The notes: a model not told the origin generated them from the sequence alone. DNA of 64,000 bases from an uncultured Gammaproteobacteria bacterium (GCA_964383765.1 CAYLHT010000004.1:3539-67538), one strand, 5' to 3'; positions 3,921 through 56,455 are shown, numbered from the stretch's first letter. Made by a program: numbers and translations.

Positions 3921-3969
3921 GCGTTTTTTGTCATCAGTATGCTTAGATTATAACATTTTCATTCTCATA

Positions 3970-4055: not shown

Positions 4056-4060
4056 GAAGG

Positions 4061-4645
4061 TTATTTTAGCTTATTTTGTTGAGTTATTCGGAAAAGCAGT
4101 ACCACCAGTCCCCCACCGAGCAAGTTGAAAAACAAGTCATGGGGCGTGTCATAAATGAACACCACACGATGCGTGCCAAACCACATATCCCCGAGCCACT
4201 CGGTCACTTCATACATCGCACCAATGAACTGGCCCGTCAAAAATCCCAACCAAGTGGCTTGGCCCCACGCGACCTTGAGTTTACCCGTCTTGCGCCAGGC
4301 TTGGTAGAAGTCGATAAAACCACCAGCCACGGCCATCCCTCCGACAGTGTGTGAAATTCGATCCCACCACCAAAAGCCAGCATACAAATGCTGAAAGTTC
4401 CCCAGCGCGTCCAGCCAGACAGCACCAAACGCCAAGAGAATGGTGATCCACGATAACTGTGCGCTACGTTTAGACAGCCAGCGATTAAACCCCAATACTA
4501 ATCCAACCGCGATCAGGTTAGTGACGGCCAGGGCAATTTGGCGTTGGGGTGTGTCATAGCTGGTGAACAACTCTAGTTTCAATAAGCCGACCTGCAGCGC
4601 GATCAGTCCGATCCACAGCCAACGACGAGTTCGAGCAGTCATCAT
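4061..4645 (-). CDS. Hypothetical polytopic membrane protein, translationally coupled to the upstream Nramp gene
   Basis: The ATG at 4645 overlaps the Nramp TGA stop (ATGA). The first 103 codons of the six-frame ORF 4061..4954 overlap the Nramp gene and are rejected. 194 aa, several hydrophobic helices. Confidence 0.5.
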   Translation of the reverse strand: MMTARTRRWLWIGLIALQVGLLKLELFTSYDTPQRQIALAVTNLIAVGLVLGFNRWLSKRSAQLSWITILLAFGAVWLDALGNFQHLYAGFWWWDRISHTVGGMAVAGGFIDFYQAWRKTGKLKVAWGQATWLGFLTGQFIGAMYEVTEWLGDMWFGTHRVVFIYDTPHDLFFNLLGGGLVVLLFRITQQNKLK

Positions 4646-5892: not shown

Positions 5893-5895
5893 ACG

Positions 5896-8388: not shown

Positions 8389-8408
8389 AGTATACCAAAA
8401 AATCTCGC

Positions 8409-8693
8409 TTACGGCTTTGGCTCAATATTCAGAGGAGATGGAGGCGTTTCCAAAAAAATTTTCTTTAATTTGTTTGTGTTGCCGCAGTGCAAACACGCTA
8501 ACTGTCGCGAGGAGTGCTTCGTTGAGTTGAGTGCGCCAAATAATCCAGTTTTGCTTGGCTGAAGCAAGCCTCCCACAACTTGGTTTAGGTTCATGTACCG
8601 ATCTGGATTTACCCCATACTCATCTTCGGCAAAACGAGAATACTGTTGACAATTCGGACATTGATAGTATTTCTTTTTCGGGGTTTCCATCAA
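8409..8693 (-). CDS. Zinc-ribbon hypothetical protein
   Basis: CPNC...CLHC pairs of cysteines. 94 aa. Confidence 0.4.
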   Translation of the reverse strand: MMETPKKKYYQCPNCQQYSRFAEDEYGVNPDRYMNLNQVVGGLLQPSKTGLFGALNSTKHSSRQLACLHCGNTNKLKKIFLETPPSPLNIEPKP

Positions 8694-8716
8694 CTTCGGT
8701 ACTATTCGATTCGGTC

Positions 8717-9139
8717 TTAGCCCACAGCCCTTTTTACCAACGCCACAATTTTCTTCTCATCTGCCGAAGTGAGCTTGATCAGTGCAAAAGCCACCGGCCA
8801 CATCTGCCCAGCATCGAGCTTGGCCGCGTCCTGAAAACCAAGGGTCGAATATCGGTATTTAAATTTAGTCGCGTTTTGGAAAAAACACACAACCTTTCCA
8901 TCTTTGTTGGCATACGCTGGCATACCGTACCACGTTTTCGGGGTGAGCGAAGGTGCAGTTTTCATAATCAGTGCGTGGATGCGCTTCGCCAGACTTCGAT
9001 CAGGTTTCGGCATTTTTGAAATTTTCGCCAAGACCGCGCCTTCGCCTTCAGTATTTCCGGAGCGGCGTTCAGCCGCTTCTTCCCGCATGACCTTGAGCTC
9101 GTCGTCGGAAAAGACTTTGGTGGGTTTGGTGGGTGTCAT
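8717..9139 (-). CDS. DUF1801 (YdhG-like) domain protein
   Basis: The central [21 protein letters not shown] segment resembles the YdhG/DUF1801 family. 140 aa. Confidence 0.4.
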
Positions 9140-9154
9140 GCGAGCACTATTGTG

Positions 9155-9883
9155 TTAGTAGGTTGGACTGGAGGCGCCGTGTGCAAAGATAGAGACGAGA
9201 ATCGAAAGCAGGAGAAAGGCGCCCCCGATGCAGAAGATGACAATCCCCCAGATGCCCCACTGTCGCTGGACCTGTTTAAACTGATCGACGCTCTCCCAGC
9301 GGCCGGCTTTCCAGGCCCACTCGTTACCTTTGATCCCTAGGACAATCCACCAAACGTAACTGAGAACTGGAACGAAGCTTAAGAGAGATAACCAAACGCT
9401 ATGTGAGATTCCCCAAATCCAGGTTAAGCCGGCTGCTCCCCAGTTCCAACCCTCGATCTCAGGCGGCACCACCGACGCATCCCCTTTGCCTGACCGTTCG
9501 TCATAGTGACTATCGGGAGCAATGGTTTTTTTATTCAAGAACACGATGCCGAGAGGGACAAAGACAAAGATGCCGATCACCCCGAGGAGCGCCACGAGCC
9601 CGAGAATAAGATTGATAATTTTTATTACTGTCGTGCCGAGCGTTACCGAATCGCCACTCGGATTGGTCGTCCGCGAAATAAAAATGACAATCGCCCAAAT
9701 GAACAGTGTGGCAACCAGGGTCAGGAACGGCAACAGGATAAAAAATATTCCGAGTTTTTTATTTTTGTTCGAGACGACCATCGCAGTATTCTGCGGGGGT
9801 TTTGGAACTTCTGTAGTAGTTGATTTTTTGGTTGGGCTCATGACAATACGATACGACAGCAACCGATCAGTGTAAAGGGCCAC
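9155..9883 (-). CDS. Hypothetical integral membrane protein (Trp-rich C-terminal half). The true start may be the internal Met at 9841
   Basis: Multiple TM helices and WxW-rich segments. No clear SD at either candidate start. Confidence 0.45.
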   Translation of the reverse strand: MALYTDRLLSYRIVMSPTKKSTTTEVPKPPQNTAMVVSNKNKKLGIFFILLPFLTLVATLFIWAIVIFISRTTNPSGDSVTLGTTVIKIINLILGLVALLGVIGIFVFVPLGIVFLNKKTIAPDSHYDERSGKGDASVVPPEIEGWNWGAAGLTWIWGISHSVWLSLLSFVPVLSYVWWIVLGIKGNEWAWKAGRWESVDQFKQVQRQWGIWGIVIFCIGGAFLLLSILVSIFAHGASSPTY

Positions 9884-9989
9884 TTGCCTTTGATGGATCC
9901 CTCTTTAAGACTTGACTTTCCTATTCTTTCAGGTAAGGTCTCGTCGTTAAGCCGACATCGCGCCGTCCAACCCTTTCAAGGAGTATCCC

Positions 9990-10382
9990 ATGGCCATGGA
10001 TTGGAAGCTACGCTCGTTCTGGAACGTCTATCAGCGACTGGCGCCCTTGATTGGACCGGTGCACATCGTCCGGCTCAACCCAGCCGATGGTCGCCAGCCG
10101 GTCATGCTGTGTCAACGCCTCGGCGTTCGGCTCGTCACCCGCCAGGAATACCTGGATGCCGTCTCGTCCGGTCTGACCCACGCTCCCGGATTTCCGATCG
10201 CCGTTGCTGACCTGTTCTACGACAACTGGGGTGATACGATCCGACATGGCTACTTCGTCAACCCCTACCCGAGCCCTCGTCCCGCCTGGGCCGATGAGTA
10301 CTACAATTGGAGGCAACGTCGCGTCAGACGGCCGTTCCATCAGCTCTGGCGTTTCGCCGTCGCTCGGGTGGCCACTGTGTAG
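9990..10382 (+). CDS. Hypothetical protein in a GC-rich, foreign-looking module
   Basis: Upstream TTGACT-16-TAAGGT promoter-like element and an AGGAG SD 7 nt before the ATG. High-GC codon usage. No known domain. Confidence 0.5.
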   Translation: MAMDWKLRSFWNVYQRLAPLIGPVHIVRLNPADGRQPVMLCQRLGVRLVTRQEYLDAVSSGLTHAPGFPIAVADLFYDNWGDTIRHGYFVNPYPSPRPAWADEYYNWRQRRVRRPFHQLWRFAVARVATV

Positions 10383-10450
10383 CCATCAACCACCGCTTGG
10401 TTTCATGACCTGGCGGTGTTTTATTGCTTGCACCTTTCGTTCCGTTGAAA

Positions 10451-11431
10451 CTAGTCTACGTGGATTCGTTTACGATAATCAGCAATCATGGGAATCCGAC
10501 TGACATACCCTGGATACATATCGACATAATGCCCGCGCAGGTCTTCTGGCTTCTGCCCGCCATACCGACCGGCCAGCCGCTCGTACTCGAAGGCCGGCGT
10601 TGTGAGATCGCCGCCCCGCACCCATTTTTCGCGTAATCCGGTGGATCCAATCGGTCCATGCGCCTCGATCGCTCCGATCCAGATCCGTCCCTCGCCATCG
10701 CGGCAAAAAATGTAGGTAAATTTTTCATCGTTCGAAGGCAGAGCCTCCATCTCGACCGGTCCGTATAAGGTTGTCGACTGACGCCAACGCTGTCCGTGGG
10801 CACGCATATTTGGCATCTGATTGAGATCGGAGAGCTTGACCTTCTCCGGTTCAAGTTTTCCACCCACCCGAAAGTATTCTCCGGTTAACTCAATCGCTCG
10901 ACGGTCGACCTGATTCCGGTAGGTTTGGGATCGATCAATCGCGTGCGCCGTTCCAGCTAAAACTAAGTCTGGATGTTCAAGTTCCAGGGCTGATCGTCCG
11001 CTGATGTCTGCCAACCCAGGCTGCACTAACGTAGGAACAGTGACGCTTTCTTCACTGTACCCTTTCGAGTACCACTCCACCTTTCCATCGTGTGAGGTGT
11101 AGGTAGGTAAATAGCGCCACAGCCCGTGAGAGTTACTTAAGTAATAGCTGCGAGCGACGACGTTCCCTTGGTGTTCAATATACGCCACGACCGCCTTCCG
11201 ACCTTCATGCAATGCGTATGGATCAGACGACAGCCAACGAACGCCCTCTGACTCGGCCAATTGATGGCGCGGTTGTAAGGATAATTCGCGCAACGTGGCC
11301 TGGTCGAGCTCAACCCCATAAAACGGATCGCCGTGGATTTCGGTTCGTTTAAGAGTCTCAGCTTGCTCCGCCAGCGAAAGTTCTTGAACGGCCTCGGGTG
11401 GCAGTGATGGTTGGGGTTCACGTTCGGACAT
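10451..11431 (-). CDS. Hypothetical protein in the same GC-rich module, convergent with the previous gene
   Basis: 326-aa ORF with high GC third positions. No recognised domain. Confidence 0.5.
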   Translation of the reverse strand: MSEREPQPSLPPEAVQELSLAEQAETLKRTEIHGDPFYGVELDQATLRELSLQPRHQLAESEGVRWLSSDPYALHEGRKAVVAYIEHQGNVVARSYYLSNSHGLWRYLPTYTSHDGKVEWYSKGYSEESVTVPTLVQPGLADISGRSALELEHPDLVLAGTAHAIDRSQTYRNQVDRRAIELTGEYFRVGGKLEPEKVKLSDLNQMPNMRAHGQRWRQSTTLYGPVEMEALPSNDEKFTYIFCRDGEGRIWIGAIEAHGPIGSTGLREKWVRGGDLTTPAFEYERLAGRYGGQKPEDLRGHYVDMYPGYVSRIPMIADYRKRIHVD

Positions 11432-11549
11432 GGATCTGAGTATACACCAATTCAGAATACTACGAGCTGATCAAAGCATCAGAATGGATCCTGCCGATAA
11501 CCGTTGACTATTTGAACGCTTTTAGTTATTCTTGCTTACTGAAAAGTAT

Positions 11550-11621
11550 GGGTCCCTAACTCAATGGTAGAGTATCAGCCTTTTAAGCTGAGAGTTCTGG
11601 GTTCGAATCCCAGGGGACCCA
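11550..11621 (+). tRNA. tRNA-Lys (anticodon UUU)
   Basis: Cloverleaf: acceptor GGGTCCC/GGGACCC, D-arm ACTC/GAGT, anticodon stem TCAGC/GCTGA with loop CTTTTAA, T-arm CTGGG-TTCGAAT-CCCAG, discriminator A. CCA is not encoded. Confidence 0.85.
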
Positions 11622-11784
11622 CTAACGTCGGCGAAACCGACATTAATAATTTACTGCGTAGTCCGGGTACGGTCACAAAACTGTGCCCCTGGGACGAGAA
11701 GGGTTGAAGTGAGCTAGTCGAGCCAGGCTCGACGCAGCGAACGATCGGCGAGTTGCCGGTGGCAAGTCGCCGCAACCCAGGACA

Positions 11785-11806
11785 GAGTCCCAGGGGGGGC
11801 CACTAA
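11785..11806 (+). repeat. Partial direct repeat of the tRNA-Lys 3' end (gagtcccagggggggccactaa versus gaatcccaggggacccactaa); possible degenerate att remnant
   Basis: About 19/22 identity to tRNA positions 11600-11626, 165 nt downstream of the tRNA. Several small hairpins lie between them. Confidence 0.25.
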
Positions 11807-11859
11807 TTGAGACAACTTTTTAAGAAATCGCCGAATCTCGGCGAAGGTCTGCATAAACA

Positions 11860-12429
11860 ATGAGTTCGAAAAAGACTCAGGGCCAGGCGCCAGAACGGAG
11901 AATAATAAAGCTAAGAGCTGAGATCGAATCGATTGAGTCTTTCTTTTATGGTGCCAAAGATGGCGATAATGATGATGCTTTCTTCATGTTGAAGATAAAA
12001 CGAGACAATGTTATCAGAGGCATGATATTGGAGTTACATTTATCAATCGAAGATCTACTCAATGGCGTCATCAAAAGCCACATTCTAAGTACAAAGACTG
12101 GGAAAGAGCTGGTTGCTTCTTCAGCGGTTGACGAGTTGCTTGTTGGTGAGAGGGCGATGGGTTTTAAGCAGAAAATAATCTATCTGAAAGCTGCATCATT
12201 GATTCGGCCTCAACTTTTCAATGACTTAGATACATTAAACCGACTAAGGAATAAAGCAGGGCACAATTGGACACTAAATCGCGTTATTAGAAAAAAGATA
12301 AAGCGGAATAAGAGGAAAAGGCCATTGCTTGAATATAAGGGTCGTAATTTGTATCAACATGAAGTCATCAAGGAATTTATTGCCCACTACGGAAGGATTT
12401 ATTATCGCTTGTGGCTGAAATTCGCTTGA
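11860..12429 (+). CDS. HEPN-like domain protein (possible Abi/toxin-type RNase) in an AT-rich segment next to tRNA-Lys
   Basis: 189 aa. C-terminal RLRNKAGHN fits the HEPN Rx4-6H motif. AT-rich codon usage contrasts with the neighbours. Confidence 0.4.
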   Translation: MSSKKTQGQAPERRIIKLRAEIESIESFFYGAKDGDNDDAFFMLKIKRDNVIRGMILELHLSIEDLLNGVIKSHILSTKTGKELVASSAVDELLVGERAMGFKQKIIYLKAASLIRPQLFNDLDTLNRLRNKAGHNWTLNRVIRKKIKRNKRKRPLLEYKGRNLYQHEVIKEFIAHYGRIYYRLWLKFA

Positions 12430-12548
12430 AATCATTCAGCTTGGGTCAATCAGTCCGATACAGTGGTGGAAAGTAGAAGTCATCGGCTTCAAACAACCAA
12501 GTTCGAAGACGGATGCAAGAGGGTTCACCGTTCGGTATATCACGGGCT

Positions 12549-14144
12549 TTACGGCAACCGATAAATCGTCACGTGCGGCCCGCGACGGAGTTTCAGGTCG
12601 AGGGTGCGTAAGACTGACCAATCGCTCGCATAGAGTAATTGATTATTGTTCCAATCAGGATTTGGGTACGGCGGGAAATCAGCTGCCACCTTGGTTTGGG
12701 TGATCACGTTATCATACCCAGCCGCCACGTGTGCATACGACGAATCAGCGCCGTACCGATCAGCGGTGCGTGCGAGTGCACTTCGACTCCCAGCCGCGAT
12801 TAACACATGTTCATTGTGTTGCTGATAATATGTCGGCGGATGGAGACCGAGGGAACTTGTCGTAATGACCGTATAGCGATCACTCAAGACCGGACCATAC
12901 GGTTCGACGACTAGGGTTGAACCAGCCGGAACATTTTCCAGTACCCATTCTCGAGCTTGTTCAGCGGTGTGCGATAATTGAAATCCAACCACCGTCCGCC
13001 CTAAACGAACTGCCGGAGCAATGAAAACGAGTGCGAGCACGACGAATACGAGCGCACGTGGTTTGACTAAGTGCCAGAACCAGACTAACCCAGCGGCCAT
13101 TGGCACTGTCAGTAGTGTCGTGACCGGAATCATCCACCGATCCCAAGACTGGCTGGTCAAACTGATCGTCGCAATGTAGATCAACGCGGCGATGAATGGG
13201 ACGTCAATCCACGCGTGCCATCCTTTTTTTGTACTCCAAAGATATGACCCTAAACCTAGCAGGGCTAATCCAGTCCCAAGCTCCCAATTCAGCGCCTTGA
13301 AATAATTCATTAAATTATGCCACGGGCCAAGATCAGTATGAATGTTGTGATGCTGAATGATTTCTAAAGCTAAGTCGTGTGCGGCTCGCAGGGGTGTGAT
13401 AAATAAAAACGGTGCAGTCACAAAGATCGTAGTGAATGCAACCAAGCCGGCAACTGCCCAACGTCGCCAGATCATCCGGCCATGCCGCCACAGATGAACC
13501 CAAACGACGGGCAATCCGATCAGGAGTAATACCGAAGTAAACTTTTCGGTGATTGCCAGCCCGAAAGCAACCGCACCGACGAACCAGTCTCGACTCGATT
13601 TCGTTCCTTCTAAGATTCGAATCATGACCGAGACCGCGATGAGCAGGAATGTCGTTTGCCAAATGTCTGGCCGGATGACGTGACTGTGGTCAATCAAGTA
13701 GAAATTGAACCCGACCAGCGCGGCGGCGGTTAGACCCACGGCCGGTGAATAGCGCCGGCCGAGCTTGTACACCAATCCGACCGCCACCGTTCCCATCATG
13801 GCTGACAACAATCTGCCGAGCACAATGAACGGCGTTGGGTTTTGACGAAAGGCCTGAGCAGCCGAGAGATGGGTATGGTCAGCAATATTCATTGCTGAAT
13901 TCCAGATCCCCCATACAAAACCCGTGATGTAAATTTGCGGTTGAGCCGGCGCGCCGAACCAACCCGGATTCAATCCCCCGTTCGCAATCCGGAGCGCCGG
14001 GGTGGTGAAGAACGGCTCATCAGTAAATGACAGTCTCGGTAAACCGTACCCAATCTGCCAAATCCGCAAACCAAAACTAACGACAATAATTAGGACTAAC
14101 CACCGAGTGGCAGTTGACCAGCGTTGCGGATTGAATTGGATCAT
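12549..14144 (-). CDS. ArnT/PMT-family (GT39/GT83-like) membrane glycosyltransferase
   Basis: 531 aa, about 12 TM helices. The N-terminal RIWQIGYGLP...DEPFF region is typical of dolichyl-phosphate-mannose/ArnT-like transferases. Confidence 0.55.
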   Translation of the reverse strand: MIQFNPQRWSTATRWLVLIIVVSFGLRIWQIGYGLPRLSFTDEPFFTTPALRIANGGLNPGWFGAPAQPQIYITGFVWGIWNSAMNIADHTHLSAAQAFRQNPTPFIVLGRLLSAMMGTVAVGLVYKLGRRYSPAVGLTAAALVGFNFYLIDHSHVIRPDIWQTTFLLIAVSVMIRILEGTKSSRDWFVGAVAFGLAITEKFTSVLLLIGLPVVWVHLWRHGRMIWRRWAVAGLVAFTTIFVTAPFLFITPLRAAHDLALEIIQHHNIHTDLGPWHNLMNYFKALNWELGTGLALLGLGSYLWSTKKGWHAWIDVPFIAALIYIATISLTSQSWDRWMIPVTTLLTVPMAAGLVWFWHLVKPRALVFVVLALVFIAPAVRLGRTVVGFQLSHTAEQAREWVLENVPAGSTLVVEPYGPVLSDRYTVITTSSLGLHPPTYYQQHNEHVLIAAGSRSALARTADRYGADSSYAHVAAGYDNVITQTKVAADFPPYPNPDWNNNQLLYASDWSVLRTLDLKLRRGPHVTIYRLP

Positions 14145-14698
14145 GTCCGTGCCGGACTCGATTGCTTGGCCCGGTCAATCAATTTGTAAAAGATTTCGCG
14201 GGTGGTGACGACGTCGACTAAAGCGCGGTGGGCGCTGAGTTGCGGAACCTTGAGATAAGCCGCGACATTACCGAGTCGGTAGCTGGCCAATAAAAGATAT
14301 CGCTTGGCGATGTCGAGTGTGTCAATGGTTTGGTTTGTCAGCGCTGGCCGGCCGAGACGCTGCAAATGGGCGTTAATAAAGCCAATATCAAACGGCGCGT
14401 TATGGGCAATGATAATAGCTGGGCCGATGAAATCAACCAATTCTGGGATGACGTCATCTGCTGCCCGACCTTCAGTTTGCAAGAGTTCATCGGTAATGCC
14501 ATTCTTGGCGTGAAAGGCTACAACATCGATGGGAAGTGGGCGAGAGGGTTTGATGAGGTGCACAAATTCCCCCACGACGTCCCGACCACGGATTTTTTGG
14601 GCGCCGATTTCAATGACTTCGTGACCTTTGGCCGGTTCCAGGCCGGTGGTTTCGACGTCGAGCACCACGAATTCAGATGGTAGGCTGACTAGTGACAT
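14141..14698 (-). CDS. DEDDh 3'-5' exonuclease, DNA polymerase III epsilon-like
   Basis: Exo I VVLDVETTGL, Exo II IIIAHNAPFD and Exo III HRALVDV motifs. 185 aa. Confidence 0.75.
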   Translation of the reverse strand: MSLVSLPSEFVVLDVETTGLEPAKGHEVIEIGAQKIRGRDVVGEFVHLIKPSRPLPIDVVAFHAKNGITDELLQTEGRAADDVIPELVDFIGPAIIIAHNAPFDIGFINAHLQRLGRPALTNQTIDTLDIAKRYLLLASYRLGNVAAYLKVPQLSAHRALVDVVTTREIFYKLIDRAKQSSPART

Positions 14699-14818
14699 AG
14701 GTTAGGATGATACGTGAAAACTAGCCAGTTTTCAACGGCAATGTGGATGGTCATCGGGGAAAAGTTGGGTACAGGGGGCGTTGTCTGACCTCTGCCTTTC
14801 CAGTACACTACGTGGGCT

Positions 14819-16186
14819 ATGGCCGACGCGATGACCGAACTGAAAACCCCGCCCCAAGCCTTGGAAGCTGAGCAGGCGGCGTTGGGGTCGTTACTCATCG
14901 ATAAAGACGCAATCGTCCGGATTGCCGACTTGGTCAGTCCGGAAGACTTTTACAGCGATAAGCACCGTTTGGTGTTTGACGCCATGTTAACGCTCTATCA
15001 AAAACACGAACCGATTGACATCGTTTCGCTCTCAACGGTCCTGCAAGAACGCGGTCAATTAGACACTATCGGCGGACGGAGTTTCCTCGTGTCGTTGTCC
15101 AACGCGGTCCCAACCGCCGCCAATGTCATTCAATACGCAAAAATAATCCAGAAGAAATCGACCTTACGCCGGTTGTTGTCGGCGGCCACCAGCATGGTTC
15201 AACTCGGTCACCAGGAAACCGAAGATGTCAGCACGCTCCTCGATCAAGCCGAGCAATCACTGTTCAGCGTTTCCCAGCGCTACCTCAAGCAAAACTTCAT
15301 CAACATTCGTGACATTCTCGATGAAGCCTTTGACCGAATTGATAAACTCCATCACGAGGGCGGCGGGTTGCGCGGCATCCCAACTGGCTTCACCCAGCTT
15401 GACAACATTCTCGGCGGATTACAAAAATCCGATTTGATTGTGTTGGCGGCGCGGCCGAGCGTTGGGAAAACCTCGTTAGCGCTTGATATTGCCCGCCACG
15501 TTGGCATTACCAGCAAGCTACCGGTCGGTGTTTTCAGCTTAGAAATGTCGAAAGAACAACTGGTCGATCGCTTGTTGTCATCGCAAGCTGACGTTGAGCT
15601 TTGGAAAATGCGCACTGGCCGCTTGAAAGATGACGAAGACTTTCAACGGATAGGTCATGCCATGGGTTTGCTGGCCGAAGCGCCGATCTACATCGATGAC
15701 AGCGCCACCTCGAATATTCTGGAAATCCGCACCAAGGCCCGACGATTACAAGCTGAGCATAAAGGCTTAGGACTAATCGTGATCGATTACCTCCAGTTGA
15801 TGGAAAGCCGTTCCGGAGAAAACCGAACCCAGGAAATCTCGGAAATTACGCGCGGTTTAAAATCGATTGCGCGCGAGCTGAATGTACCAGTCTTAGCACT
15901 TTCACAGTTGTCCCGTGCAGTTGAAGCCGAACGCCCACCAATTCCAAAACTTGCCCACCTTCGCGAATCCGGTTCGATTGAGCAGGATGCGGACGTGGTG
16001 CTCTTCATTTACCGCCCGGCGGTCTACGATCCAGACATCGAAGCCGAGAAAAAGAATTTGGCGGAAATCTTTGTGGCCAAGCACCGCAACGGCCCGACTG
16101 GTAGAGTCAGACTCTCATTCATCGAACGCCGCGCCTCCTTTGACAATCGTGAGGAACGGATGGATGAGTCGCAGTTTGGATCGTAG
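14819..16186 (+). CDS. dnaB: Replicative DNA helicase DnaB
   Basis: Walker A ARPSVGKTS, LPVGVFSLEMSKEQL, and a RecA-like C-terminal domain. 455 aa. Confidence 0.85.
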   Translation: MADAMTELKTPPQALEAEQAALGSLLIDKDAIVRIADLVSPEDFYSDKHRLVFDAMLTLYQKHEPIDIVSLSTVLQERGQLDTIGGRSFLVSLSNAVPTAANVIQYAKIIQKKSTLRRLLSAATSMVQLGHQETEDVSTLLDQAEQSLFSVSQRYLKQNFINIRDILDEAFDRIDKLHHEGGGLRGIPTGFTQLDNILGGLQKSDLIVLAARPSVGKTSLALDIARHVGITSKLPVGVFSLEMSKEQLVDRLLSSQADVELWKMRTGRLKDDEDFQRIGHAMGLLAEAPIYIDDSATSNILEIRTKARRLQAEHKGLGLIVIDYLQLMESRSGENRTQEISEITRGLKSIARELNVPVLALSQLSRAVEAERPPIPKLAHLRESGSIEQDADVVLFIYRPAVYDPDIEAEKKNLAEIFVAKHRNGPTGRVRLSFIERRASFDNREERMDESQFGS

Positions 16187-48254: not shown

Positions 48255-48368
48255 ATCAGTAGTGTATCAGAGACTTGACAAAGATGTCCTTTTCTGTCAA
48301 CGTGGTCCCATTACTGAAACACGCCGAACTGCTGTCTTGTTGTTGTTTGACAACCAAGGAGAGCATCC

Positions 48369-49112
48369 ATGCCCTCGCCTATTCGTGGGTCAACCAAAGA
48401 GTGCTTGGCGCACTACTTTGCTCAGCTGCCGCCGACCAGTCAACGGTCCGGGGTGCGCGCGCGAACGCCGCTGATCCAGTATTGCGGCTGCATCCGGCGG
48501 ACCGTTGCCGATTGGCAAACCGGTCCCCTGCCAGTCGGTGTCTACTTGATCAAGCTTCGCTTTTTTTTGGCGAGCCAAGGATACACCGTCACCGAGTTGG
48601 AGAGTTTGCACCCGTTGGTCCGTTCGCTCGGCTTGATCCTGGCCGAGGGGCGAGCCACGCTCGAGGAATTGCGTCTGGCGCTGGGGTATTCGGACCAGCA
48701 AGAAGTCTTGACGATTCTTCGAGGTAAGCAGAAGCCATACCACCTGGAACAGCGTCTGCAACCACTGGTCGACCGTTACCGAGCGGAACCGAAACCCCCG
48801 GCGACCGGAGTGAAACCGGCCAATGGTGGCGCCGTTCGGGCCACCCCACCCTCAATTCCGGGCGTGAATGGAAGTCAGAAGGGTCTCGTCATCAAGACGC
48901 TCGGCGCCATGATCAAGGCCATGCTACCGCTTGCGAAAGCGGTTGAAGCCAGCCCATTCACCGTCGCCGATCGTGATGCGCTGCATGAGTTGCTGCCCGA
49001 GAACGAGATGTTCCATCTGATCTACTCCCTCAAGCGGCTCACCAGTGAGACCGCTCGACGGGACATCCCACCTGAAGCGCAATCCCACCAAGGAGGAGAC
49101 CGTGGGCGATAA
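48369..49112 (+). CDS. Hypothetical protein, first gene of the high-GC three-gene island
   Basis: AAGGAG SD 7 nt upstream of the ATG. High-GC codon usage. No recognised domain. Overlaps the next gene by 11 nt. Confidence 0.55.
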   Translation: MPSPIRGSTKECLAHYFAQLPPTSQRSGVRARTPLIQYCGCIRRTVADWQTGPLPVGVYLIKLRFFLASQGYTVTELESLHPLVRSLGLILAEGRATLEELRLALGYSDQQEVLTILRGKQKPYHLEQRLQPLVDRYRAEPKPPATGVKPANGGAVRATPPSIPGVNGSQKGLVIKTLGAMIKAMLPLAKAVEASPFTVADRDALHELLPENEMFHLIYSLKRLTSETARRDIPPEAQSHQGGDRGR

Positions 49113-50817
49113 CGAGCTCAAAGGCGTCAGCCAGTTCGGCTTTCACATGGGTAACACCATGGCCAGCATCGCGGCCGAGTATCCGCTCCTGCACGACGTC
49201 ATCAAGGAGTGTGTCCAGAATGCACTGGACGAGGACGCTCGACAGATCACGATCGTCGTCAACCTGCGCACGCGGCGGGCGGCGGTGCGTGACGATGGGA
49301 ACGGCTGCAACCAGTCCAAGTTCGACGCGGCGCTGCTCCAGATCAATCAGTCGTCCAAGCTCAAGAAGCGGTTGAAGCTCGGCCGTTTCGGCAAGGGTTT
49401 GATCTCGCCGTTCGGCAAGGGCAAGTACTTCACGTTCACGTCGTGCCCCAAGGGCCGCAACCGCGACTACATCGAGTGGATGTTCGACACCGATGAGATT
49501 ACGCATCAGGCGCGGACCAACACCATTCCGTTCCGGAAGCGCACCGAGCTGATTCGCGGCCTGGAAGGCATCCCGCCCAAGGGGTGTGCTCTCCGGTGGT
49601 GGTCGACCGAAGTGGCGATCGAAGAGATCACCGAAGACCGGGTCATCAGCAAGGTCAACGGTGAGAGCCTCGTGTTCGACATCCTCAAGACCTTCGGCCT
49701 GGCGATGCGGTTGAAGCAGACCGAGATCCAGATCAAGGTGATCAACGAGGATGGTCGGGACTTCGAGCGGACGTTCACCGCCGACGAGCCCACCGGCCAG
49801 CCTCTGCCGGTGGTGGAGTTGGCGGACAAGGACGCCGGCATGGTCACCTTCCGACTGGCCGTCGCTCGGAAAACCGAGCAGGGTCGGCGCGGCGTGGTCT
49901 CGGTCGGCGAGACCGATGACCTCTACCGTTTCCGATTCTCGAATCTGCGGATGCAGGCGAACGAGTGGTTGCCCAAGGAGGCCTTCGACGCGCTGACGTC
50001 CGGGTTCTTCGAGGGTGAGATCACGGCCACTGGGGTCGAGCTGCAAGCCTCGCGCAAGAGCTTCAAGCCCGGCAACGCGGTGGTCGGGTTCTGCGCGGCG
50101 CTCGAGGAGTGGTACAAGAAGCACGGCGACGCGATCTTCACGGACTTGCGCGAAGAGCGTAAGGACGAGGAGTTCGTGGATTCGGCCCAGCGTTGCTTCA
50201 GTGTGCTGAAGGGTATGCTGGGGCTGCCGCAGTTCCGACACCTGAATGAGGTGTTGGATGCGGCCAAGTTGGGAACCATCGGTCCTGGGCACAGTCGCAA
50301 GGGTAAGCACATCATCGGTCAGCAACCGGTCGGGGCCTACGCTCACAGTTCCGAGCACCGGGCCGCGCCGGGTGAGTCGACGCGGGAGCGGGGGGAGCCG
50401 CGGCATGATCTGCCCAAGCATCACCCCTTCTCAGTCCTGAGCGAGAGTGGGCGCAAGCGGTCGATCGTTTCTGATGACAGTCTCGGCCTGCAGATCGTGG
50501 CCGTCGAACTGGACCAGGAGACGTTCTGGGAATACGACCCAACCTGCGGGCTGCTGAGCATCAACCATCTCTACGGCGCCTGGCGCCAGGTGGAGAAGGA
50601 TGCGCGGATGCGAGATCGTCTGATGCTGTTCGCCGCGGTCCAGGCGCTCTCGCTGCATTCCATGCCGGATGATTACCAGACGACCCAGCGCCTGGTGCTC
50701 AACGCCATGGTCGACCCGTATACGTTCACCCTCGTCAACGCCGAAGCCCTGTCGGGGCGGCGACGCGGACGGAGTGAACCGAAGCGGGCGGTGGCCCAGA
50801 TCAAGCGTAAGGCTTGA
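49102..50817 (+). CDS. GHKL-superfamily ATPase, MORC/Hsp90/MutL-like (HATPase_c_3-type)
   Basis: In-frame GTG start with an AAGGAGG SD 6 nt upstream. Bergerat motifs: N-box ECVQNALDED, G1 DDGNG, G2 GRFGKGLISPFGKG. About 571 aa from the GTG. An intrinsic terminator follows. Confidence 0.65.
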   Translation: MGDNELKGVSQFGFHMGNTMASIAAEYPLLHDVIKECVQNALDEDARQITIVVNLRTRRAAVRDDGNGCNQSKFDAALLQINQSSKLKKRLKLGRFGKGLISPFGKGKYFTFTSCPKGRNRDYIEWMFDTDEITHQARTNTIPFRKRTELIRGLEGIPPKGCALRWWSTEVAIEEITEDRVISKVNGESLVFDILKTFGLAMRLKQTEIQIKVINEDGRDFERTFTADEPTGQPLPVVELADKDAGMVTFRLAVARKTEQGRRGVVSVGETDDLYRFRFSNLRMQANEWLPKEAFDALTSGFFEGEITATGVELQASRKSFKPGNAVVGFCAALEEWYKKHGDAIFTDLREERKDEEFVDSAQRCFSVLKGMLGLPQFRHLNEVLDAAKLGTIGPGHSRKGKHIIGQQPVGAYAHSSEHRAAPGESTRERGEPRHDLPKHHPFSVLSESGRKRSIVSDDSLGLQIVAVELDQETFWEYDPTCGLLSINHLYGAWRQVEKDARMRDRLMLFAAVQALSLHSMPDDYQTTQRLVLNAMVDPYTFTLVNAEALSGRRRGRSEPKRAVAQIKRKA

Positions 50818-50839
50818 TCGCGAGCTACGTTCGAACCTT

Positions 50840-50872
50840 CCCCCGAGGTGTTTCTCGCCTCGGGGGGTTTTT
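50840..50872 (+). terminator. Rho-independent terminator after the GHKL ATPase gene
   Basis: CCCCCGAGG-tgtttctcg-CCTCGGGGG followed by GTTTTTCTTATT. Confidence 0.7.
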
Positions 50873-51251
50873 CTTATTCGGATTCTTGACACGGGCGGTA
50901 AGCTGTGATAAGTCTGTGGCGCAGTCATCGCTCGTTGTCAAACCCTCAACCCACAGGAGGTGGTCTTCAACGACCCGTAAGAAAGCGACACCCCCGGAGG
51001 GACCTGGGATTCGAGCCACCATTGCGGCAGTTCACCCAGAGTACCTGGTCCTCTACCCTGAGGACCGCTCACTCCTCCCGGCCGGCGAGAACATCACCTG
51101 TTCCCGTCGCAACTGGCGAGGACGACGCCCACCGGAGAAAGGGCAGGTCGTCATGCTGTCCGAAATCCTCCGGTACGCTAAAGGCTGGCGAACGCGATCC
51201 GCGCGTCCCGTCACCTTGGCAGACACAAGACCCAAGACGAAAGGGTAACTC

Positions 51252-52073
51252 ATGGCTCCGAAAGCCAAAACCGCCGTGCTGTCGTTCAAGCAGATCACCG
51301 TTCCGTTCTTCGTTCGCCGCGGACTCGACCAGTCCCGGGTGGACTACTTCGTCAACCTGTACCGGTCCGGCGGAGACGTCGAACCGATCCTGGTCAACCG
51401 GAAGGGCGAGCTGATCGAGGGCCGGCATCGCCTCAAGGCCCAGGAGGTGCTCAAGCGCAACAAGGTGACGTGCATGGTCACCGATATCACCGACCGGGCC
51501 AAGATGATCGAGCTCGCGATGCAAGCCAATTCCGGCGGCGCCAAGCCGATGTCGGAAGAGGACTACATCTACAGCGCGACGCATCTGCTCGAGCTGAACC
51601 GGCCCTACCGACAGGTGGTCAAGAGCCTGATCGGCATGGGCTTGCCCGACCAGTACGCCCGTCGGCTGGTGTCGAACGCCAGGGCCAACATCGGCAAGGC
51701 CAAGATGCGGGCGGCCGCCGAGGACGTGGTCGATCGCGATGTGCCGATCGCCGAGGCTGCCAAGAAGCACGGGGTGGAGGTGACCAGCCTGCGGTCGTCG
51801 CTCCGCAGCCGGGGTCGGGCAGCCACCAAGACCGATCGCCCGGCGACGATCAACTCCCTGCTCAGCAAGCGGTTCAAGGCGTTGTCGAGCAGTAATGGTC
51901 GCCTGCTCCAGGGCCTGTTCCGGTCCTACGAGGACGGCGACGTCAGCGAGAAGACGATCAAGGCCGCCCTGACGAAGATGAAGGAGCTGCACGTCAAGCT
52001 GGGCGTGGTCATCGATGACCACGAGAACCGCTTCGCGAAGCTGTCCGGTCGCCGGATGCGGCGGTCGGCCTAG
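51252..52073 (+). CDS. ParB/Srx/DGQHR-fold domain protein (ParB-like N-terminal domain)
   Basis: ILVNRKGELIEGRHRLKAQEV matches the ParB/sulfiredoxin GxxRxxA-type core (EGRHR). 273 aa. A downstream terminator follows. Confidence 0.55.
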   Translation: MAPKAKTAVLSFKQITVPFFVRRGLDQSRVDYFVNLYRSGGDVEPILVNRKGELIEGRHRLKAQEVLKRNKVTCMVTDITDRAKMIELAMQANSGGAKPMSEEDYIYSATHLLELNRPYRQVVKSLIGMGLPDQYARRLVSNARANIGKAKMRAAAEDVVDRDVPIAEAAKKHGVEVTSLRSSLRSRGRAATKTDRPATINSLLSKRFKALSSSNGRLLQGLFRSYEDGDVSEKTIKAALTKMKELHVKLGVVIDDHENRFAKLSGRRMRRSA

Positions 52074-52084
52074 CAGTGCAACAC

Positions 52085-52117
52085 CCCCCCGATGGAAACG
52101 TCGGGGATTTTTATTTT
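52085..52117 (+). terminator. Rho-independent terminator after the ParB-like gene
   Basis: CCCCGA-tggaaacg-TCGGGG followed by ATTTTTATTTT. Confidence 0.6.
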
Positions 52118-52545
52118 ACTGGAGTCAGCGCGACTGCTACCTGACGCACCCAACTATACAAATGCTGACTTGTTGCGCCGAGACCGGTGATTTGAACGTC
52201 AACAATTCCATCATCAGTCGTGCTCGGGACTCCGGCGACTTCAACTGATTCATTCGCCGCTAGAACTTCAAGCCGCTGCGGTCCATCAGTGTTTCGATAA
52301 AATTCTAACACCACAATTTCTCGCCGCTGCCCGCGATGAAGCCAAGAAAACTTTATATCCATTTCGGTCAAGGTATCCGGACCGAGGTTACGAAGTTCGA
52401 CCCGAATGTTCTCACCCCGCTGAATCTTCGACACCACAACATTCGGTCCCTGCTGTTGCTCATTCCGACGTTGATACCGATAGAAGAGCCACTGACCGAT
52501 CAGACCCAGTCCGGCACCGAAGATTAAGAGTCCGAGGTCACGCAT
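52111..52545 (-). CDS. Hypothetical protein with an N-terminal TM helix
   Basis: 144-aa ORF. No known domain. Confidence 0.4.
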   Translation of the reverse strand: MRDLGLLIFGAGLGLIGQWLFYRYQRRNEQQQGPNVVVSKIQRGENIRVELRNLGPDTLTEMDIKFSWLHRGQRREIVVLEFYRNTDGPQRLEVLAANESVEVAGVPSTTDDGIVDVQITGLGATSQHLYSWVRQVAVALTPVK

Positions 52546-52945: not shown

Positions 52946-55900
52946 CTAGCCAAATATCTGCCTAGCATGTTCGACGTCATCAACCCCCACCGACCAATCT
53001 AACCAGACCACCCGTAAATCGTTGACTGGGGCAGGCGGGGTCGTGTCAGGGGAGATAACGGGGTTGTTCACAATCATCACGACGGTCGGGGAAAAGGCGG
53101 AGTTCCCGGCGTTGTCGCGGGCAAGGGCGGTCAGGTCATAGGTACCGTTGGGAACTGAGTTGCTATCCCAGGAGTATACTAACTGTCCCGACCCAAGAAT
53201 TTTTTGTGAGATGGGTTCACCATTCAGGAAAAATTGAGTGTCTTTCACCCCGCTCGTGCCGAAATCGAAGACCGAGATTCTGAAAGAGACGATGCCGCTT
53301 ACTTGCGTTCGGTCGGTCGGAGAGTAAATGGTTGCAATCGGAGGATCGGTATCAATATTCCCGACATTGTTCACGGTTACAGAAATTGCACTCGAGGTAG
53401 TCGTGTTTGTACCATCGGTAGCGGAGGCGGTCAGCGTGTGTGTTCCATTTGAAAATGGGGTCGTATCCCAGTACTGAACATACGGGGAAGCGGTCAAGGT
53501 TGAGCCTAGTGGCTGGCCATCGACGTACACTTGGACCCCGGTCACGAGGCTATTATCGGCGGCGGTCAATCCGACAGCAACGGTGCCGCCGACGGTTGAG
53601 CCATTCGTCGGGGTAGTGATGCTGATCGTCGGCGGCTCTGTGTCGCCATTCGGATCAACCAAAACTCCATCCGAGGATTGGGTTGGGCCAATATTGCCAG
53701 CTGCATCAACGGTTCGAACGGAAACGTAATAGTGCCGACCCGACGTCAGGGTCAAGTTGTTCAAACTCACTCGCGTATCGATCAAGGCTTGAAAGGACTG
53801 GACGTCAGTTCCGCCCGGTGTCGTCCCGATCGCATACTGATACGTCACGCCAGACGCATCATTGACGACTTGCCAGTTCGCGGACAGGTTGGTCAGACTG
53901 TTTTGGACATCAATATCAGCTCCAGTCCCATCGTTCACAAATCCGGTCGCCGGGGGCGAAGTATCATCGACCAACACGCCACTCGACGTCGCCCGCGGAC
54001 CAGCCACCCCATTCAGACCGACCGAACGAACGGAAAAATAGTAGTGCTGACCCTCCACCAGGGCTAAGCCAGTCCGACTGGCATAGATGTTTTTTCCGAC
54101 GTCAGTATACCCCACCACATTCGTCGCGCCGGCCGTCGTACCGATGGCGTATTGGTAATGATCAAGCGTCGCCAGGTCCGGCGAATCACACCAGAAAGCG
54201 GTTAAGACTGATGGCGAATTGGTGGCCGAGTTTTCCGCGCCCCCGACCACGCCATCCAGCACACAATCCGGCGGCAAGGGGCGGCTGCCGGTCGTCAGCG
54301 GACCGGCCGGAGCTGGAGGAGTTGTATCGATAGTGACGCCGTCGGACCAGGTCATATAACTTGCGTTGCCGGCTATATCGATTGCCTGCACTCCAATCAA
54401 ATAGGTCGTCCCGGGTGTCATGGTTAAACCGGTTTGTGAAAACGACGTCTGAAGTCCGTTATCAGTTAGCGGGATGAGGTTGATGCCATCCGGCGTATCA
54501 ACTTCATATTTGTATTTAGCCACCCCAGTGCCATCATCAGTCACCGCATCCCAATTCCCCGCCAGCGAAGTCGTATCAGTTTGAACATCAATATCTTGGC
54601 CGGGTCCATCGTTGACGATGGCCGGGGCCAGCGGCGGGATGGTATCAAAATTCGGCGACGTCACGGTCACGCTCAGGCTGGTCGGCGTGGTTGAGTTGAC
54701 CGTGATGGTTGATCCATTCTTCGGATCAGTCAAGGACTGTCCCGGTTTCAACACCGAATCGACTTGAGTATTCGTCGGTTGTGGCGAAGCATCCAGTAAG
54801 TACGTATAGATGCCATTCGTGTCTAGAATCAGTGCTCCACCGAAGACCGCAGATAACCGGGGATCGCTCGCTGAGAACATCTGCCCATCAGTATTCAGAG
54901 TCACCCCGTCGGCCTGATACGGTTGCCGATATTCAACCGTGGTGTATTCGTTTTGGTCACGCTGAATTCGTAACAGTTTGGTTCCTGCTCCGGCTTGGTC
55001 GACTGGAGTGAGGGTCACGGTCTGACCCGGAGCATGGTTGTTGATGGTGATTGATTGGCCAGGAATCCAACCGGCCAAGTCTTTGCGTTCAGCACTAAAA
55101 TGTCCTTGGTCATAAATCTCATAAAACGGATCATAAATTTGCCCGCCCATCACATCGTAGGGATTTCCGTACTCGACATTCTGGCAAGTTGAATCGTAAA
55201 ACGTTGTGCCGGCCGGACACGATGTCCAACTCGCATGCCCACCGCCAACCAGGGTATGCCCAAGTTCGTGGTTCCAGATGTACTGAATTCGTTGTGAAGT
55301 TTTTGGCAGTTTCACCCAGATCGTATACATCGGAATCGTGCCTTCGTTAGTCGTGTAGTTGATTTGCCACGGCCAAGCCAACCCATCCCAGGCGCAAGAT
55401 TGATCCGTGGTTTCGTCCGGGTAGGCCTTGTACGGAACCAGGATGGCCAGGGTTTGATTTGCCAGTTGGCTGAAGTCGACATCAGGGTCAGCTTGGGTCA
55501 CCAACTGCTGGGCAAATTGCATGTAGGGGCAGGTATTACCCCGCGCCACCGGCACCTCGTACCAATCCCGATTGGTAAACTGCCATTGGTACTGCCCATA
55601 GGAATTGTCCGCGTAATAAGAATTGACGGTATTGGAAATTGTTTGCAGCGTTGAAAAATTTGGGGACCGAACGTCCGTGTTGTTGAAGTCGCCCATCAGC
55701 GTCAAGACTTTGGCGTGGCTTGCGGCTAGTGTTTGGGGCGAAGAAATGACGGATGTGATCGTTGGAGCTGAGGAAGGGCTGGTCTCAGTTTTTACGAGAA
55801 AGGCATCGTCTAGGGTGTAGCCATCAACTTGAAAGGTTGCTCCTGGTGTGATCACTGTCTTCGACCCTTCGACCCCATACACAGTGTATGTTTGATTCCG

Positions 55901-56455
55901 AGTTCGTAATAACAATTCATTCATTCCAGGCTGCTTGTCATCAACCAGATCTCCGTGCAGAGCGTGGATCTGTCCTTGGACTTTGGCTGCCTGCTCAACA
56001 CAGCCTCGACTAACGGCGGCTAATTTTCTCTCCTGGGCCGACCCGAACACCAATTTCTGGGCCGCTACCGGATCGCTCGACATCAAATCCCGCAGCGCTT
56101 GTTTCCGAGCTTGAGCGGCGTGTTGCAGCGCTCCGCGTTTGAATATTTTTCCGGCCCCAGCGGTTTCATAATCCGCGCGAGCCTCGAGAACTTGCTGGTT
56201 GAGGGTTTGTACTTGGCTCTCAGATAACGAGCGGGACGAGTTTGTCGAGCTGACCGATGAACATGTGACTGCGGTCAGATCTGGCACCACCGAAAAGGCC
56301 ATCCCGATAACCCCCAATCCGATGCCGAGAGAAAGCAAAATCACGGCCACTTCGGTTTTCTCGAGAACCGGAACCTGGATGGCTGTTTCGATTGTGGGTC
56401 GTTTCTGTTTGGCCATGATTTTCATTCCACGAGGTGGATTTTTTTCTCCGACCAA
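52946..56455 (-). CDS. Large (1169 aa) secreted/surface protein with an HExxH zinc-metalloprotease motif and tandem Ig/FN3-like repeats; TTG start
   Basis: N-terminal TM/signal anchor. WNHELGHTLVGGGH (HExxH) lies around residue 400. Two repeated about 100-aa modules (VNDGPGQDIDVQTDTTSLAGNW... and VNDGTGADIDVQNSLTNLSANW...). C-terminal tandem ~100-aa Ig-like repeats (TDPPIATIYSPTD..., TEPPTISITTPTN...). Confidence 0.6.
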   Translation of the reverse strand: MVGEKNPPRGMKIMAKQKRPTIETAIQVPVLEKTEVAVILLSLGIGLGVIGMAFSVVPDLTAVTCSSVSSTNSSRSLSESQVQTLNQQVLEARADYETAGAGKIFKRGALQHAAQARKQALRDLMSSDPVAAQKLVFGSAQERKLAAVSRGCVEQAAKVQGQIHALHGDLVDDKQPGMNELLLRTRNQTYTVYGVEGSKTVITPGATFQVDGYTLDDAFLVKTETSPSSAPTITSVISSPQTLAASHAKVLTLMGDFNNTDVRSPNFSTLQTISNTVNSYYADNSYGQYQWQFTNRDWYEVPVARGNTCPYMQFAQQLVTQADPDVDFSQLANQTLAILVPYKAYPDETTDQSCAWDGLAWPWQINYTTNEGTIPMYTIWVKLPKTSQRIQYIWNHELGHTLVGGGHASWTSCPAGTTFYDSTCQNVEYGNPYDVMGGQIYDPFYEIYDQGHFSAERKDLAGWIPGQSITINNHAPGQTVTLTPVDQAGAGTKLLRIQRDQNEYTTVEYRQPYQADGVTLNTDGQMFSASDPRLSAVFGGALILDTNGIYTYLLDASPQPTNTQVDSVLKPGQSLTDPKNGSTITVNSTTPTSLSVTVTSPNFDTIPPLAPAIVNDGPGQDIDVQTDTTSLAGNWDAVTDDGTGVAKYKYEVDTPDGINLIPLTDNGLQTSFSQTGLTMTPGTTYLIGVQAIDIAGNASYMTWSDGVTIDTTPPAPAGPLTTGSRPLPPDCVLDGVVGGAENSATNSPSVLTAFWCDSPDLATLDHYQYAIGTTAGATNVVGYTDVGKNIYASRTGLALVEGQHYYFSVRSVGLNGVAGPRATSSGVLVDDTSPPATGFVNDGTGADIDVQNSLTNLSANWQVVNDASGVTYQYAIGTTPGGTDVQSFQALIDTRVSLNNLTLTSGRHYYVSVRTVDAAGNIGPTQSSDGVLVDPNGDTEPPTISITTPTNGSTVGGTVAVGLTAADNSLVTGVQVYVDGQPLGSTLTASPYVQYWDTTPFSNGTHTLTASATDGTNTTTSSAISVTVNNVGNIDTDPPIATIYSPTDRTQVSGIVSFRISVFDFGTSGVKDTQFFLNGEPISQKILGSGQLVYSWDSNSVPNGTYDLTALARDNAGNSAFSPTVVMIVNNPVISPDTTPPAPVNDLRVVWLDWSVGVDDVEHARQIFG

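Follow-up and report, generated by a model that had tools for sequence, protein, structure and literature searches.

A GC-rich island encoding a GHKL ATPase and a helix-turn-helix partner is one copy of an undescribed, paraMORC-like module with a possible role in conflict with foreign DNA

INTRODUCTION

Why should a few kilobases of GC-rich DNA, with genes for an ATPase and putative DNA-binding proteins, sit among genes of ordinary composition, and what might they do there? This question is raised by a stretch of 64,000 nucleotides (nt), referred to here as the window, from a genome labelled as an uncultured Gammaproteobacteria bacterium (GCA_964383765.1, CAYLHT010000004.1:3539-67538). An initial annotation, made from the sequence alone, had described near 48.3-52.1 kb a foreign-looking island of three genes, for an unknown protein, a GHKL ATPase and a ParB-like protein, and had proposed it as a candidate conflict, defence or partition module. 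In this study, we show that the island is compositionally foreign and is one copy of an undescribed module of four genes, which we call A, B, D and C in their order along the plus strand. As far as its sequence tells, the module is of a paraMORC-like GHKL type, and both its set of partners and its host range are new.

The Patescibacteria make up a large share of bacterial diversity, are ultra-small, have tiny genomes and carry few recognised defence systems. Prokaryotic MORC-like ATPases have long been predicted to be the ancestors of eukaryotic chromatin silencers and have so far been tied to nucleases and helicases. For comparison with known systems we used published definitions (PMC2292703, PMC12065111, PMC12137116). 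Prokaryotic MORC and paraMORC ATPases are linked to superfamily II (SF-II) helicases, nucleases and methylases, and are predicted to be components of conflict (restriction-modification) systems that loop DNA (Iyer, Abhiman, & Aravind, 2008; PMC2292703). Among defence proteins that have been validated, Shedu type I-D also has a GHKL domain, and in GHKL-Shedu the ATPase is fused to a DUF4263 nuclease (PMC12137116). The Menshen system (NsnABC) comprises a ParB-DUF262 plus ParBDB sensor, an ABC ATPase with DUF3696 and an inPIN-nuclease effector (PMC12065111).

RESULTS

That the segment is richer in GC than its flanks, as had been judged by eye, is borne out by measurement. Between 48.37 and 52.07 kb the GC content is 0.624, against 0.524 ± 0.015 in other segments of 3.7 kb (z 6.7); 500-nt segments from 48.5 to 52.1 kb lie at 0.60-0.65, against 0.48-0.55 on either flank, and in 2-kb segments GC exceeds 0.56 nowhere else in the 64 kb. 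The GC content at third codon positions (GC3) is 0.68 in A, 0.84 in B, 0.68 in D and 0.90 in C, against 0.57 ± 0.05 (maximum 0.68) in 21 host genes, and the tetranucleotide distance of the island has a z of 11.4. The island genes are co-oriented on the plus strand and nearly all other long open reading frames (ORFs) of the window lie on the minus strand; this part of the earlier description stands, and the count of three genes does not, since a fourth gene, D, is encoded in the 435-nt gap between B and C. We agree that the long antisense ORFs across the island are artefacts, as these frames overlap homology-supported ones and the sense frame of B has a ratio of nonsynonymous to synonymous divergence (dN/dS) of 0.16. 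The strand bias over the whole window (1-64000) is extreme: besides the island, the only plus-strand ORF of at least 200 amino acids (aa) is that at 14819-16186.

Gene B (49102-50817, plus strand, 571 aa) encodes a GHKL (Bergerat) ATPase domain, an S5 transducer, a long helix, a disordered linker and a C-terminal zincin-like domain without HExxH. The longest ORF runs from 49045 to 50817, and the N-termini of homologues agree with a start at 49102. B matches Pfam HATPase_c_3 at 2.8e-12, and every Bergerat motif is kept in the family alignment, in which E29, N33, D36, D57xGxG61 and K85LGRFGxG92 (residues counted from window position 49123) are invariant; the initial annotation had already seen the GHKL motifs of B and had placed it in the MORC/Hsp90/MutL clade. 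An S5-fold domain with a conserved basic finger follows the GHKL domain, as in MORC proteins; the fold of B is closest to SMCHD1, MORC and MutL, and its top sequence-level match in the PDB is MutL. We conclude that B is an intact GHKL and S5 ATPase of the MORC/SMCHD1/MutL structural class. HExxH is absent from all members of the B family, so the zincin-like domain is not an active protease, which was ruled out on motif grounds together with an HNH-like site and a Topo VI-like A/B pair; the features of a Topo VI A subunit (a winged helix with the catalytic Tyr, a Toprim acidic cluster) were not found in A. The initial annotation had also named an ordinary sensor histidine kinase as the identity that would undo its assignment. 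We rejected it, because HisKA is absent, HATPase_c scores 18.0 bits against a cut-off of 26.4 and the fold is nearest to MORC and MutL. Among viral proteins, the structural analogues of B are generic GHKL proteins only (topoisomerase II, rIIA, Hsp90-like; template modelling score at most 0.44).

Like MORC and paraMORC proteins, B has a GHKL domain with four ATP-binding motifs and an S5 transducer with a conserved basic residue and, like paraMORCs, it has a family-specific C-terminal extension, a sporadic distribution suggesting lateral transfer and a predicted action on DNA. However, the MORC-specific S5 motif GhXhhpXXRhl had no match in a regular-expression search of 13 B-family sequences, and B is therefore paraMORC-like in architecture and not a MORC protein in the strict sense; with paraMORC1-5, only this architecture agrees (GHKL, S5, a C-terminal extension of its own and no MORC motif). 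Unlike MORC proteins, B is not once found beside an SF-II helicase, a restriction-fold or HNH nuclease or a methylase. It is accompanied instead by a helix-turn-helix (HTH) protein of the Cro/C1 type, a small beta-rich protein and sometimes a ParB-fold protein, and it further differs from MORC and paraMORC proteins in being restricted to Patescibacteria and in a zincin-like C-terminal fold lacking HExxH. To SMCHD1 and MORC2/3 (PDB 6mw7, 5ix1, 5of9) its sequence identity is just 11-13%; B is without their CW, hinge and coiled-coil chromatin-reader domains, and DNA targeting would here come from the separate HTH and ParB proteins. From MutL (PDB 7p8v, 5x9y, 1b63) it is set apart by scores of 16-26 bits against NCBIfam cut-offs of 180-840 (for TIGR00585/PRK00095, 25.8 bits against 180, with only residues 51-109 matched), by a different C-terminal fold, by the lack of a MutS/MutH context and by its sporadic distribution.

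Gene A (48369-49112, plus strand, 247 aa) is predicted to encode an N-terminal Cro/C1-type HTH, a variable low-complexity linker and a conserved helical C-terminal domain, an arrangement that recurs in an alignment of 25 sequences, in which no conserved acidic or catalytic residues were seen. Profile searches gave weak HTH matches (PDB 3op9 at E 0.0015, P22 C2, and Pfam YdaS, HTH_23 and HTH_17); scans of domain libraries yielded no family assignment for A, and PADLOC no match. By these sequence criteria, A, which universally partners B, is best described as an HTH protein of the Cro/C1 type.

The distribution of the module was followed over a comparison set of about 35 related loci. Word-index searches badly under-report the family, returning 12 matches for B and 2 for A; an exhaustive profile search gave 428 clusters (50% identity) of the B family at E <= 1e-30, at least 150 of them full-length and nearly all from metagenome-assembled genomes (MAGs) of Patescibacteria. 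A single peptide pattern of B is matched by 26 of 185,579 GTDB species representatives, and these 26 loci lie, on contigs of up to 486 kb, nearly all in MAGs of Saccharibacteria, Parcubacteria, Minisyncoccia, Vogelbacteria or the 'Patescibacteria group'. Exceptions in label are three loci assigned to Gammaproteobacteria, one to Bdellovibrionales and one to Acidobacteriaceae. Two loci labelled 'uncultured Gammaproteobacteria' (L019 and L025) share P-type ATPase flanks and the position of the module with a locus of Candidatus Parcubacteria (L036); this common flanking synteny makes the two labels doubtful, and the taxonomic labels of some third-party annotation MAGs are probably wrong.

By hidden Markov model (HMM) mapping, A lies directly upstream of B in about 33 of the 35 loci; in two loci, among the most divergent, it went undetected. 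What is conserved is the pair A+B, with D ahead of it in about half of the loci; the A-GHKL-ParB architecture that had been put forward is not a conserved one, since A+B is invariant across the set and ParB occurs in three loci. The neighbouring genes vary by lineage and are housekeeping genes (EF-G, ArgRS, gyrA, polA, L10/L12, P-type ATPases and others). No SF-II helicase, restriction-fold or HNH nuclease, or methylase recurs among 113 flanking ORFs from about 30 loci, no recurrent toxin or phage family is seen among the flanking genes, and all-versus-all clustering of 664 flanking ORFs disclosed no further recurrent family or hidden effector. No nuclease, methylase, helicase or toxin domain is recognisable in A, B, C or D.

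An A-B pair is also carried by a 354-kb contig catalogued as viral (L037, IMGVR_UViG_3300013121_000020, 2950-15857), with genes for ThyX, dUTPase, a sulfatase, a GT2 glycosyltransferase and a beta-helix protein as neighbours; these flanks are ambiguous, and the contig could be a jumbo phage or a mis-binned chromosome of the Candidate Phyla Radiation (CPR). In L014 (6708-9921) the module has tRNA genes on both sides, tRNA-Val 62 nt upstream and tRNA-Arg 163 nt downstream, and in L030 (9744-9972) tRNA-Ser and tRNA-Glu directly follow B. Such tRNA surroundings may be preferred insertion neighbourhoods; no integrase is present in them.

The GC content of the module exceeds that of its flanks in 28 of 32 loci (mean +5.4 points, Wilcoxon p 1.7e-6). 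The GC3 excess averages +10 points and reaches +30 to +35 in L019 and L025, and the regression of module GC on host GC has a slope of 0.71; the excess and this slope together support horizontal movement between hosts with incomplete amelioration. One relative, L001 (9223-12941), has the island at the very site that it occupies in the window, in the order hydrolase-A-B-D-C-144-aa gene, and the flanking genes of the two are synonymously saturated (proportion of synonymous differences 0.66-0.79). The island is therefore old at this site and not a recent insertion. Moreover, since GC3 stays high past the synonymous saturation of the flanks, it appears to be maintained and not to be a relic of recent transfer, and recent transfer alone does not explain the persistent excess. 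In another locus, L002, B is 70-75% similar to the B proteins of the window and L001, as these are to each other, and it stands in an unrelated context, so the module has moved. Between the window and L001, B (dN/dS 0.16) and D (0.21) are under purifying selection, and A evolves as fast as the fastest flanking gene. Conserved synteny, which had been named beforehand as evidence that would speak against a foreign module, is seen with one relative (L001) and does not extend across the family; horizontal spread still holds because the contexts of the family are many and unrelated and the module is GC-shifted against its hosts.

A 12-nt direct repeat had been reported to bracket the segment. It is indeed present at 48331 and 52164, but random placements yield an equivalent pair in 3.6% of cases, the right copy falls within the neighbouring 144-aa gene and L001, though syntenic, is without it, so the repeat is probably due to chance and we rejected it as an insertion scar. 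A search for repeats found no terminal ones for the module, and a metagenome scan with the flanking hydrolase for an empty site gave no match.

Gene C (51252-52073, plus strand, 273 aa) starts 3 nt past the stop codon of D and is predicted to encode an N-terminal ParB/Srx-fold domain (LIEGRHR) and a C-terminal HTH (AAKKHGV). The ParB/Srx core seen earlier is supported by a match to the ParB-like PHROG 620 at 1.3e-7. Scores fall below the cut-offs for Pfam ParB_N (E 0.004, 17.7 bits against 26.3) and for TIGR00180 (16.4 against 58.45), the matches to Noc and to Spo0J (1vz0) are weak, and the best PADLOC match is to a ParB-like segment of MTase_II (E 0.011). When aligned, the sequences from the window, L001 and L026 share a P...[DE]GRHR...A core, an A.AN.GG..ED motif and the C-terminal HTH. 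C resembles ParB/Srx proteins such as Spo0J/ParB, Noc and KorB in having their N-terminal signature (P..., [DE]GRHR, A.AN.GG..ED) followed by an HTH and, as in several conflict systems with ParB/Srx proteins, it adjoins an ATPase. Unlike ParB, it scores under the curated cut-offs, has neither parS nor ParA and is optional to the module, and where canonical ParB carries a GERRxRA box it has GRHR. With up to 3 mismatches allowed, the 64 kb contain 0 matches to the parS consensus (2.1 expected by chance), and there is no ParA-like ORF in or beside the island. By its sequence, C is a divergent ParB/Srx-like protein, with a real resemblance at the superfamily level, and an optional accessory; it is not a chromosomal Spo0J with a parS site nearby, an identity that the initial annotation had set against its own. 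The partition role that it had entertained finds no support, as ParA and parS are lacking, the contigs are chromosomal (up to 486 kb) and there are no plasmid or phage relatives. C also differs from the Menshen sensor NsnA (DndB/DUF262 sensors; PMC12065111) in not being of the DUF262 type, in its association with a GHKL and not an ABC ATPase, and in having no nuclease effector; matches to DUF262, ABC ATPases and nucleases are absent from the island proteins in Pfam and PADLOC.

C is confined to three loci (the window, L001 and L026) and directly follows D in each of them; the D-C pair and A-B are divergent in L026. No relatives of C were found in phage, plasmid, viral-contig (IMG/VR) or Joint Genome Institute metagenome collections. 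At the site shared by the window (51252-52073) and L001 (12144-12941), the two C proteins are 27% identical with a dN/dS of about 1.06, against 72% identity for B and 77% for D; this divergence suggests diversifying selection or replacement by a distant allele. Extreme divergence is often seen in the specificity components of conflict systems.

Gene D (50970-51248, plus strand) encodes a small protein of about 80-92 aa with an invariant KGWRA..A.P tail, and its stop codon lies 3 nt before the ATG of C. In tblastn searches, the D proteins of L009 (97 aa) and L005 (95 aa) matched window positions 50979-51215 at E 5e-12 and 1e-8, respectively. The alignment shows an apparently beta-rich protein of about 90 aa in which T, W, V, G, R and A positions are invariant, but otherwise it varies too much to serve for a pattern scan; neither Pfam nor the PDB has a match to D. 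An HMM detects it in 15 loci, usually in the order D-A-B, and in L005 it is encoded upstream of A. The start codon of D is uncertain, as no canonical one follows the conserved TTGACA (50886-50891) in the window. Candidates are ACG at 50970, ATT at 51009 (with a Shine-Dalgarno sequence GGAGGG at 50996) and GTG at 50916. The arrangement AGGAGG (50955-50960)-N9-ACG (50970) is common to the window and L001; a GTG at 50960 overlaps the Shine-Dalgarno site and opens a frame of 6 codons only.

Expression signals accompany the genes. The strong Shine-Dalgarno sites noted earlier are there: AAGGAG (48356-48361) stands 7 nt ahead of the ATG of A (48369), and AAGGAGG 5 nt ahead of the GTG of B (49102). 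The TAA stop of A (49110-49112) gives the two genes the 11-nt overlap already described, which suggests translational coupling. Upstream of A, a putative control region (48275-48361, plus strand) holds TTGACA (48275-48280), an inverted TGTCAA (48295-48300), a further TTGACA (48347-48352) and the Shine-Dalgarno site; the pattern TTGACAA...TGTCAACGTGG...TTTGACAACC is kept in L001 and, in part, in L002. In the majority of family loci, a promoter close to consensus (TTGACA-N17-TAtaAT) stands 50-145 nt upstream. A generic promoter scan gave no full consensus upstream of A in the window, and promoter function of the region is for this reason putative. We considered the upstream TTGACA motifs as a family-wide operator and rejected this, since they resemble ordinary -35 boxes and extra copies occur only in the window, L001 and L002. 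No internal repeats or palindromes were found as candidate binding sites. The intrinsic terminators that had been placed after B and C were confirmed, at 50839-50867 (plus strand; 12-bp stem with 9 GC pairs, then a T-run; hairpin kept in L001) and at 52087-52106 (plus strand; 8-bp stem with 6 GC pairs, then a T-run). Ahead of D and C, the predicted control region at 50886-50960 (plus strand) comprises TTGACA (50886-50891) and the Shine-Dalgarno site AGGAGG (50955-50960), both kept in L001.

DISCUSSION

Full-text literature contained no description of an HTH plus GHKL (plus ParB) module in CPR bacteria and, as the initial annotation had supposed, PADLOC, Pfam and the literature offer no named defence system that matches. 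What, then, might the module do? Our preferred reading, held tentatively, is that it is a self-contained accessory module which spreads horizontally among Patescibacteria and, lacking a nuclease, uses the HTH protein (and ParB) to bring an ATP-gated clamp to DNA, with a role in conflict; the evidence for the conflict role is the distribution and evolution of the module. Conflict with foreign DNA is favoured because the distribution is sporadic, the module mobile, its composition atypical and its accessory parts fast-evolving. The constant pairing of A with B, the HTH motifs of A and C, the ParB core of C, housekeeping neighbours that differ in every lineage, a promoter and terminators belonging to each copy and the conflict role predicted for prokaryotic MORC and paraMORC ATPases also speak for the preferred reading. 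In the mechanism that we envisage, A would bind DNA by its HTH and recruit B by its conserved C-terminal domain, and B would be held as a dimer by the C-terminal domain, its GHKL heads closing on ATP as in MutL, MORC and Hsp90. Such closure would entrap or compact the bound DNA, and the outcome would be a nuclease-free block to the replication or expression of incoming phage, plasmid or taken-up DNA (in naturally competent cells). C, where present, would be a second nucleotide-gated DNA-binding component, and D may bridge or regulate.

Several points weigh against this reading. Defence is something that we infer, given that the flanks are not enriched for defence islands and that, unusually for a defence system, no effector in the form of a nuclease or toxin was identified. 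PADLOC found nothing recurrent among the 113 flanking ORFs, and the flanks lack enrichment of restriction-modification or mobile-element genes. None of the components has a match above noise level in PADLOC-DB v2, which includes Mza, Tiamat and Shedu. The island is not highly mobile, having persisted at one site over saturating synonymous divergence. The physical interactions of A with B and of D with C are predicted from gene order and from overlapping or closely adjacent frames. The AlphaFold model of A, built on a three-sequence alignment, is all-alpha with a predicted local distance difference test score of 48 and is unusable for a fold search. Finally, the putative recognition-helix segment of A (T..RW) is fairly conserved across the family, as would be expected of a common target or of autoregulation more than of a diversified recognition of invaders.

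The same conserved segment, together with MutL as the best sequence-level PDB match, would suit a lineage-specific function in DNA metabolism or chromatin, in which B is a MutL/MORC/Hsp90-like clamp for repair, nucleoid compaction or remodelling, A is its targeting or regulatory subunit, and conflict plays no part. Chromosomal housekeeping contexts on contigs of up to 486 kb, long retention at one site with B under purifying selection, and the lack of an effector gene are also in its favour. However, the distribution is sporadic, the position varies across lineages and the composition is persistently atypical; the MutL models of NCBIfam score far under their cut-off (25.8 against 180), and an optional, hyper-divergent ParB partner is a poor fit for housekeeping. 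We regard such a function as rather unlikely.

Unlikely, too, in our estimate is the more elaborate proposal of a CPR-specific, nuclease-free immunity or silencing of the MORC/SMCHD1 type, in which A as a sequence- or feature-specific HTH loader, sometimes with C as a nucleotide-gated ParB-fold clamp and D as a small adaptor, would direct the ATP-gated GHKL clamp B to entrap and silence incoming DNA. If it were true, the module would be a prokaryotic functional counterpart of eukaryotic MORC/SMCHD1 silencing, and its GC-rich composition could reflect avoidance of its own, possibly AT-directed, action.

A foreign composition and promoters and terminators of its own at each copy could also mark a selfish cassette for stabilisation or partition, or a mobile-element remnant, in which the ATPase, together with the HTH and ParB-like proteins, would maintain or silence its own element, in the manner of KorB/KorA-type silencing on plasmids. 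A ParB-fold protein with an HTH in three loci, tRNA genes beside some copies (L014, L030) and the copy on the 354-kb contig catalogued as viral fit this view. It is nevertheless improbable: in about 30 loci, the surrounding ±8 kb are free of integrase, transposase, replication, conjugation and ParA genes, and 72,556 plasmids and 50,697 phages hold no relatives. Moreover, there are no terminal repeats, the 12-nt repeat being at chance level, there is no parS-like site in the window, and more than 90% of the copies are without ParB.

A diverged member of a named system (MORC/paraMORC restriction-modification operons, Menshen, Mza, Tiamat, GHKL-Shedu or a two-component sensor kinase) is highly improbable, as the weak local matches of B that speak for it (TmtA at E 1.2e-4 over 67 residues, MzaB at 1.3e-3, BbrUII/HgiDII at 8.5e-5, a sacsin domain at 6.6e-8) all lie below cut-offs and span only about 60-90 residues of the ATP-binding motifs, the defining partners (SF-II helicase, endonuclease, methylase, ABC ATPase, nuclease effector, DUF4263, HisKA) are absent, and the MORC S5 signature is missing from all 13 sequences tested.

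As a lineage-restricted, horizontally spread and unannotated module of about 430 clusters, the system is a concrete candidate for the way in which Patescibacteria handle foreign DNA. A GHKL ATPase paired only with DNA-binding proteins would offer a simple system in which to test the restriction or silencing of DNA without cutting. Moreover, a GC excess that is family-wide and long-lasting is an unusual evolutionary signal that deserves explanation.

OTHER FEATURES OF THE WINDOW

Downstream of the island, the minus strand at 52946-56455 carries an ORF of 1169 aa with an N-terminal hydrophobic segment. By eye, it contains many repeated Ig/FN3-like segments and a metalloprotease-like HELGH motif, and it is probably a large surface protein.

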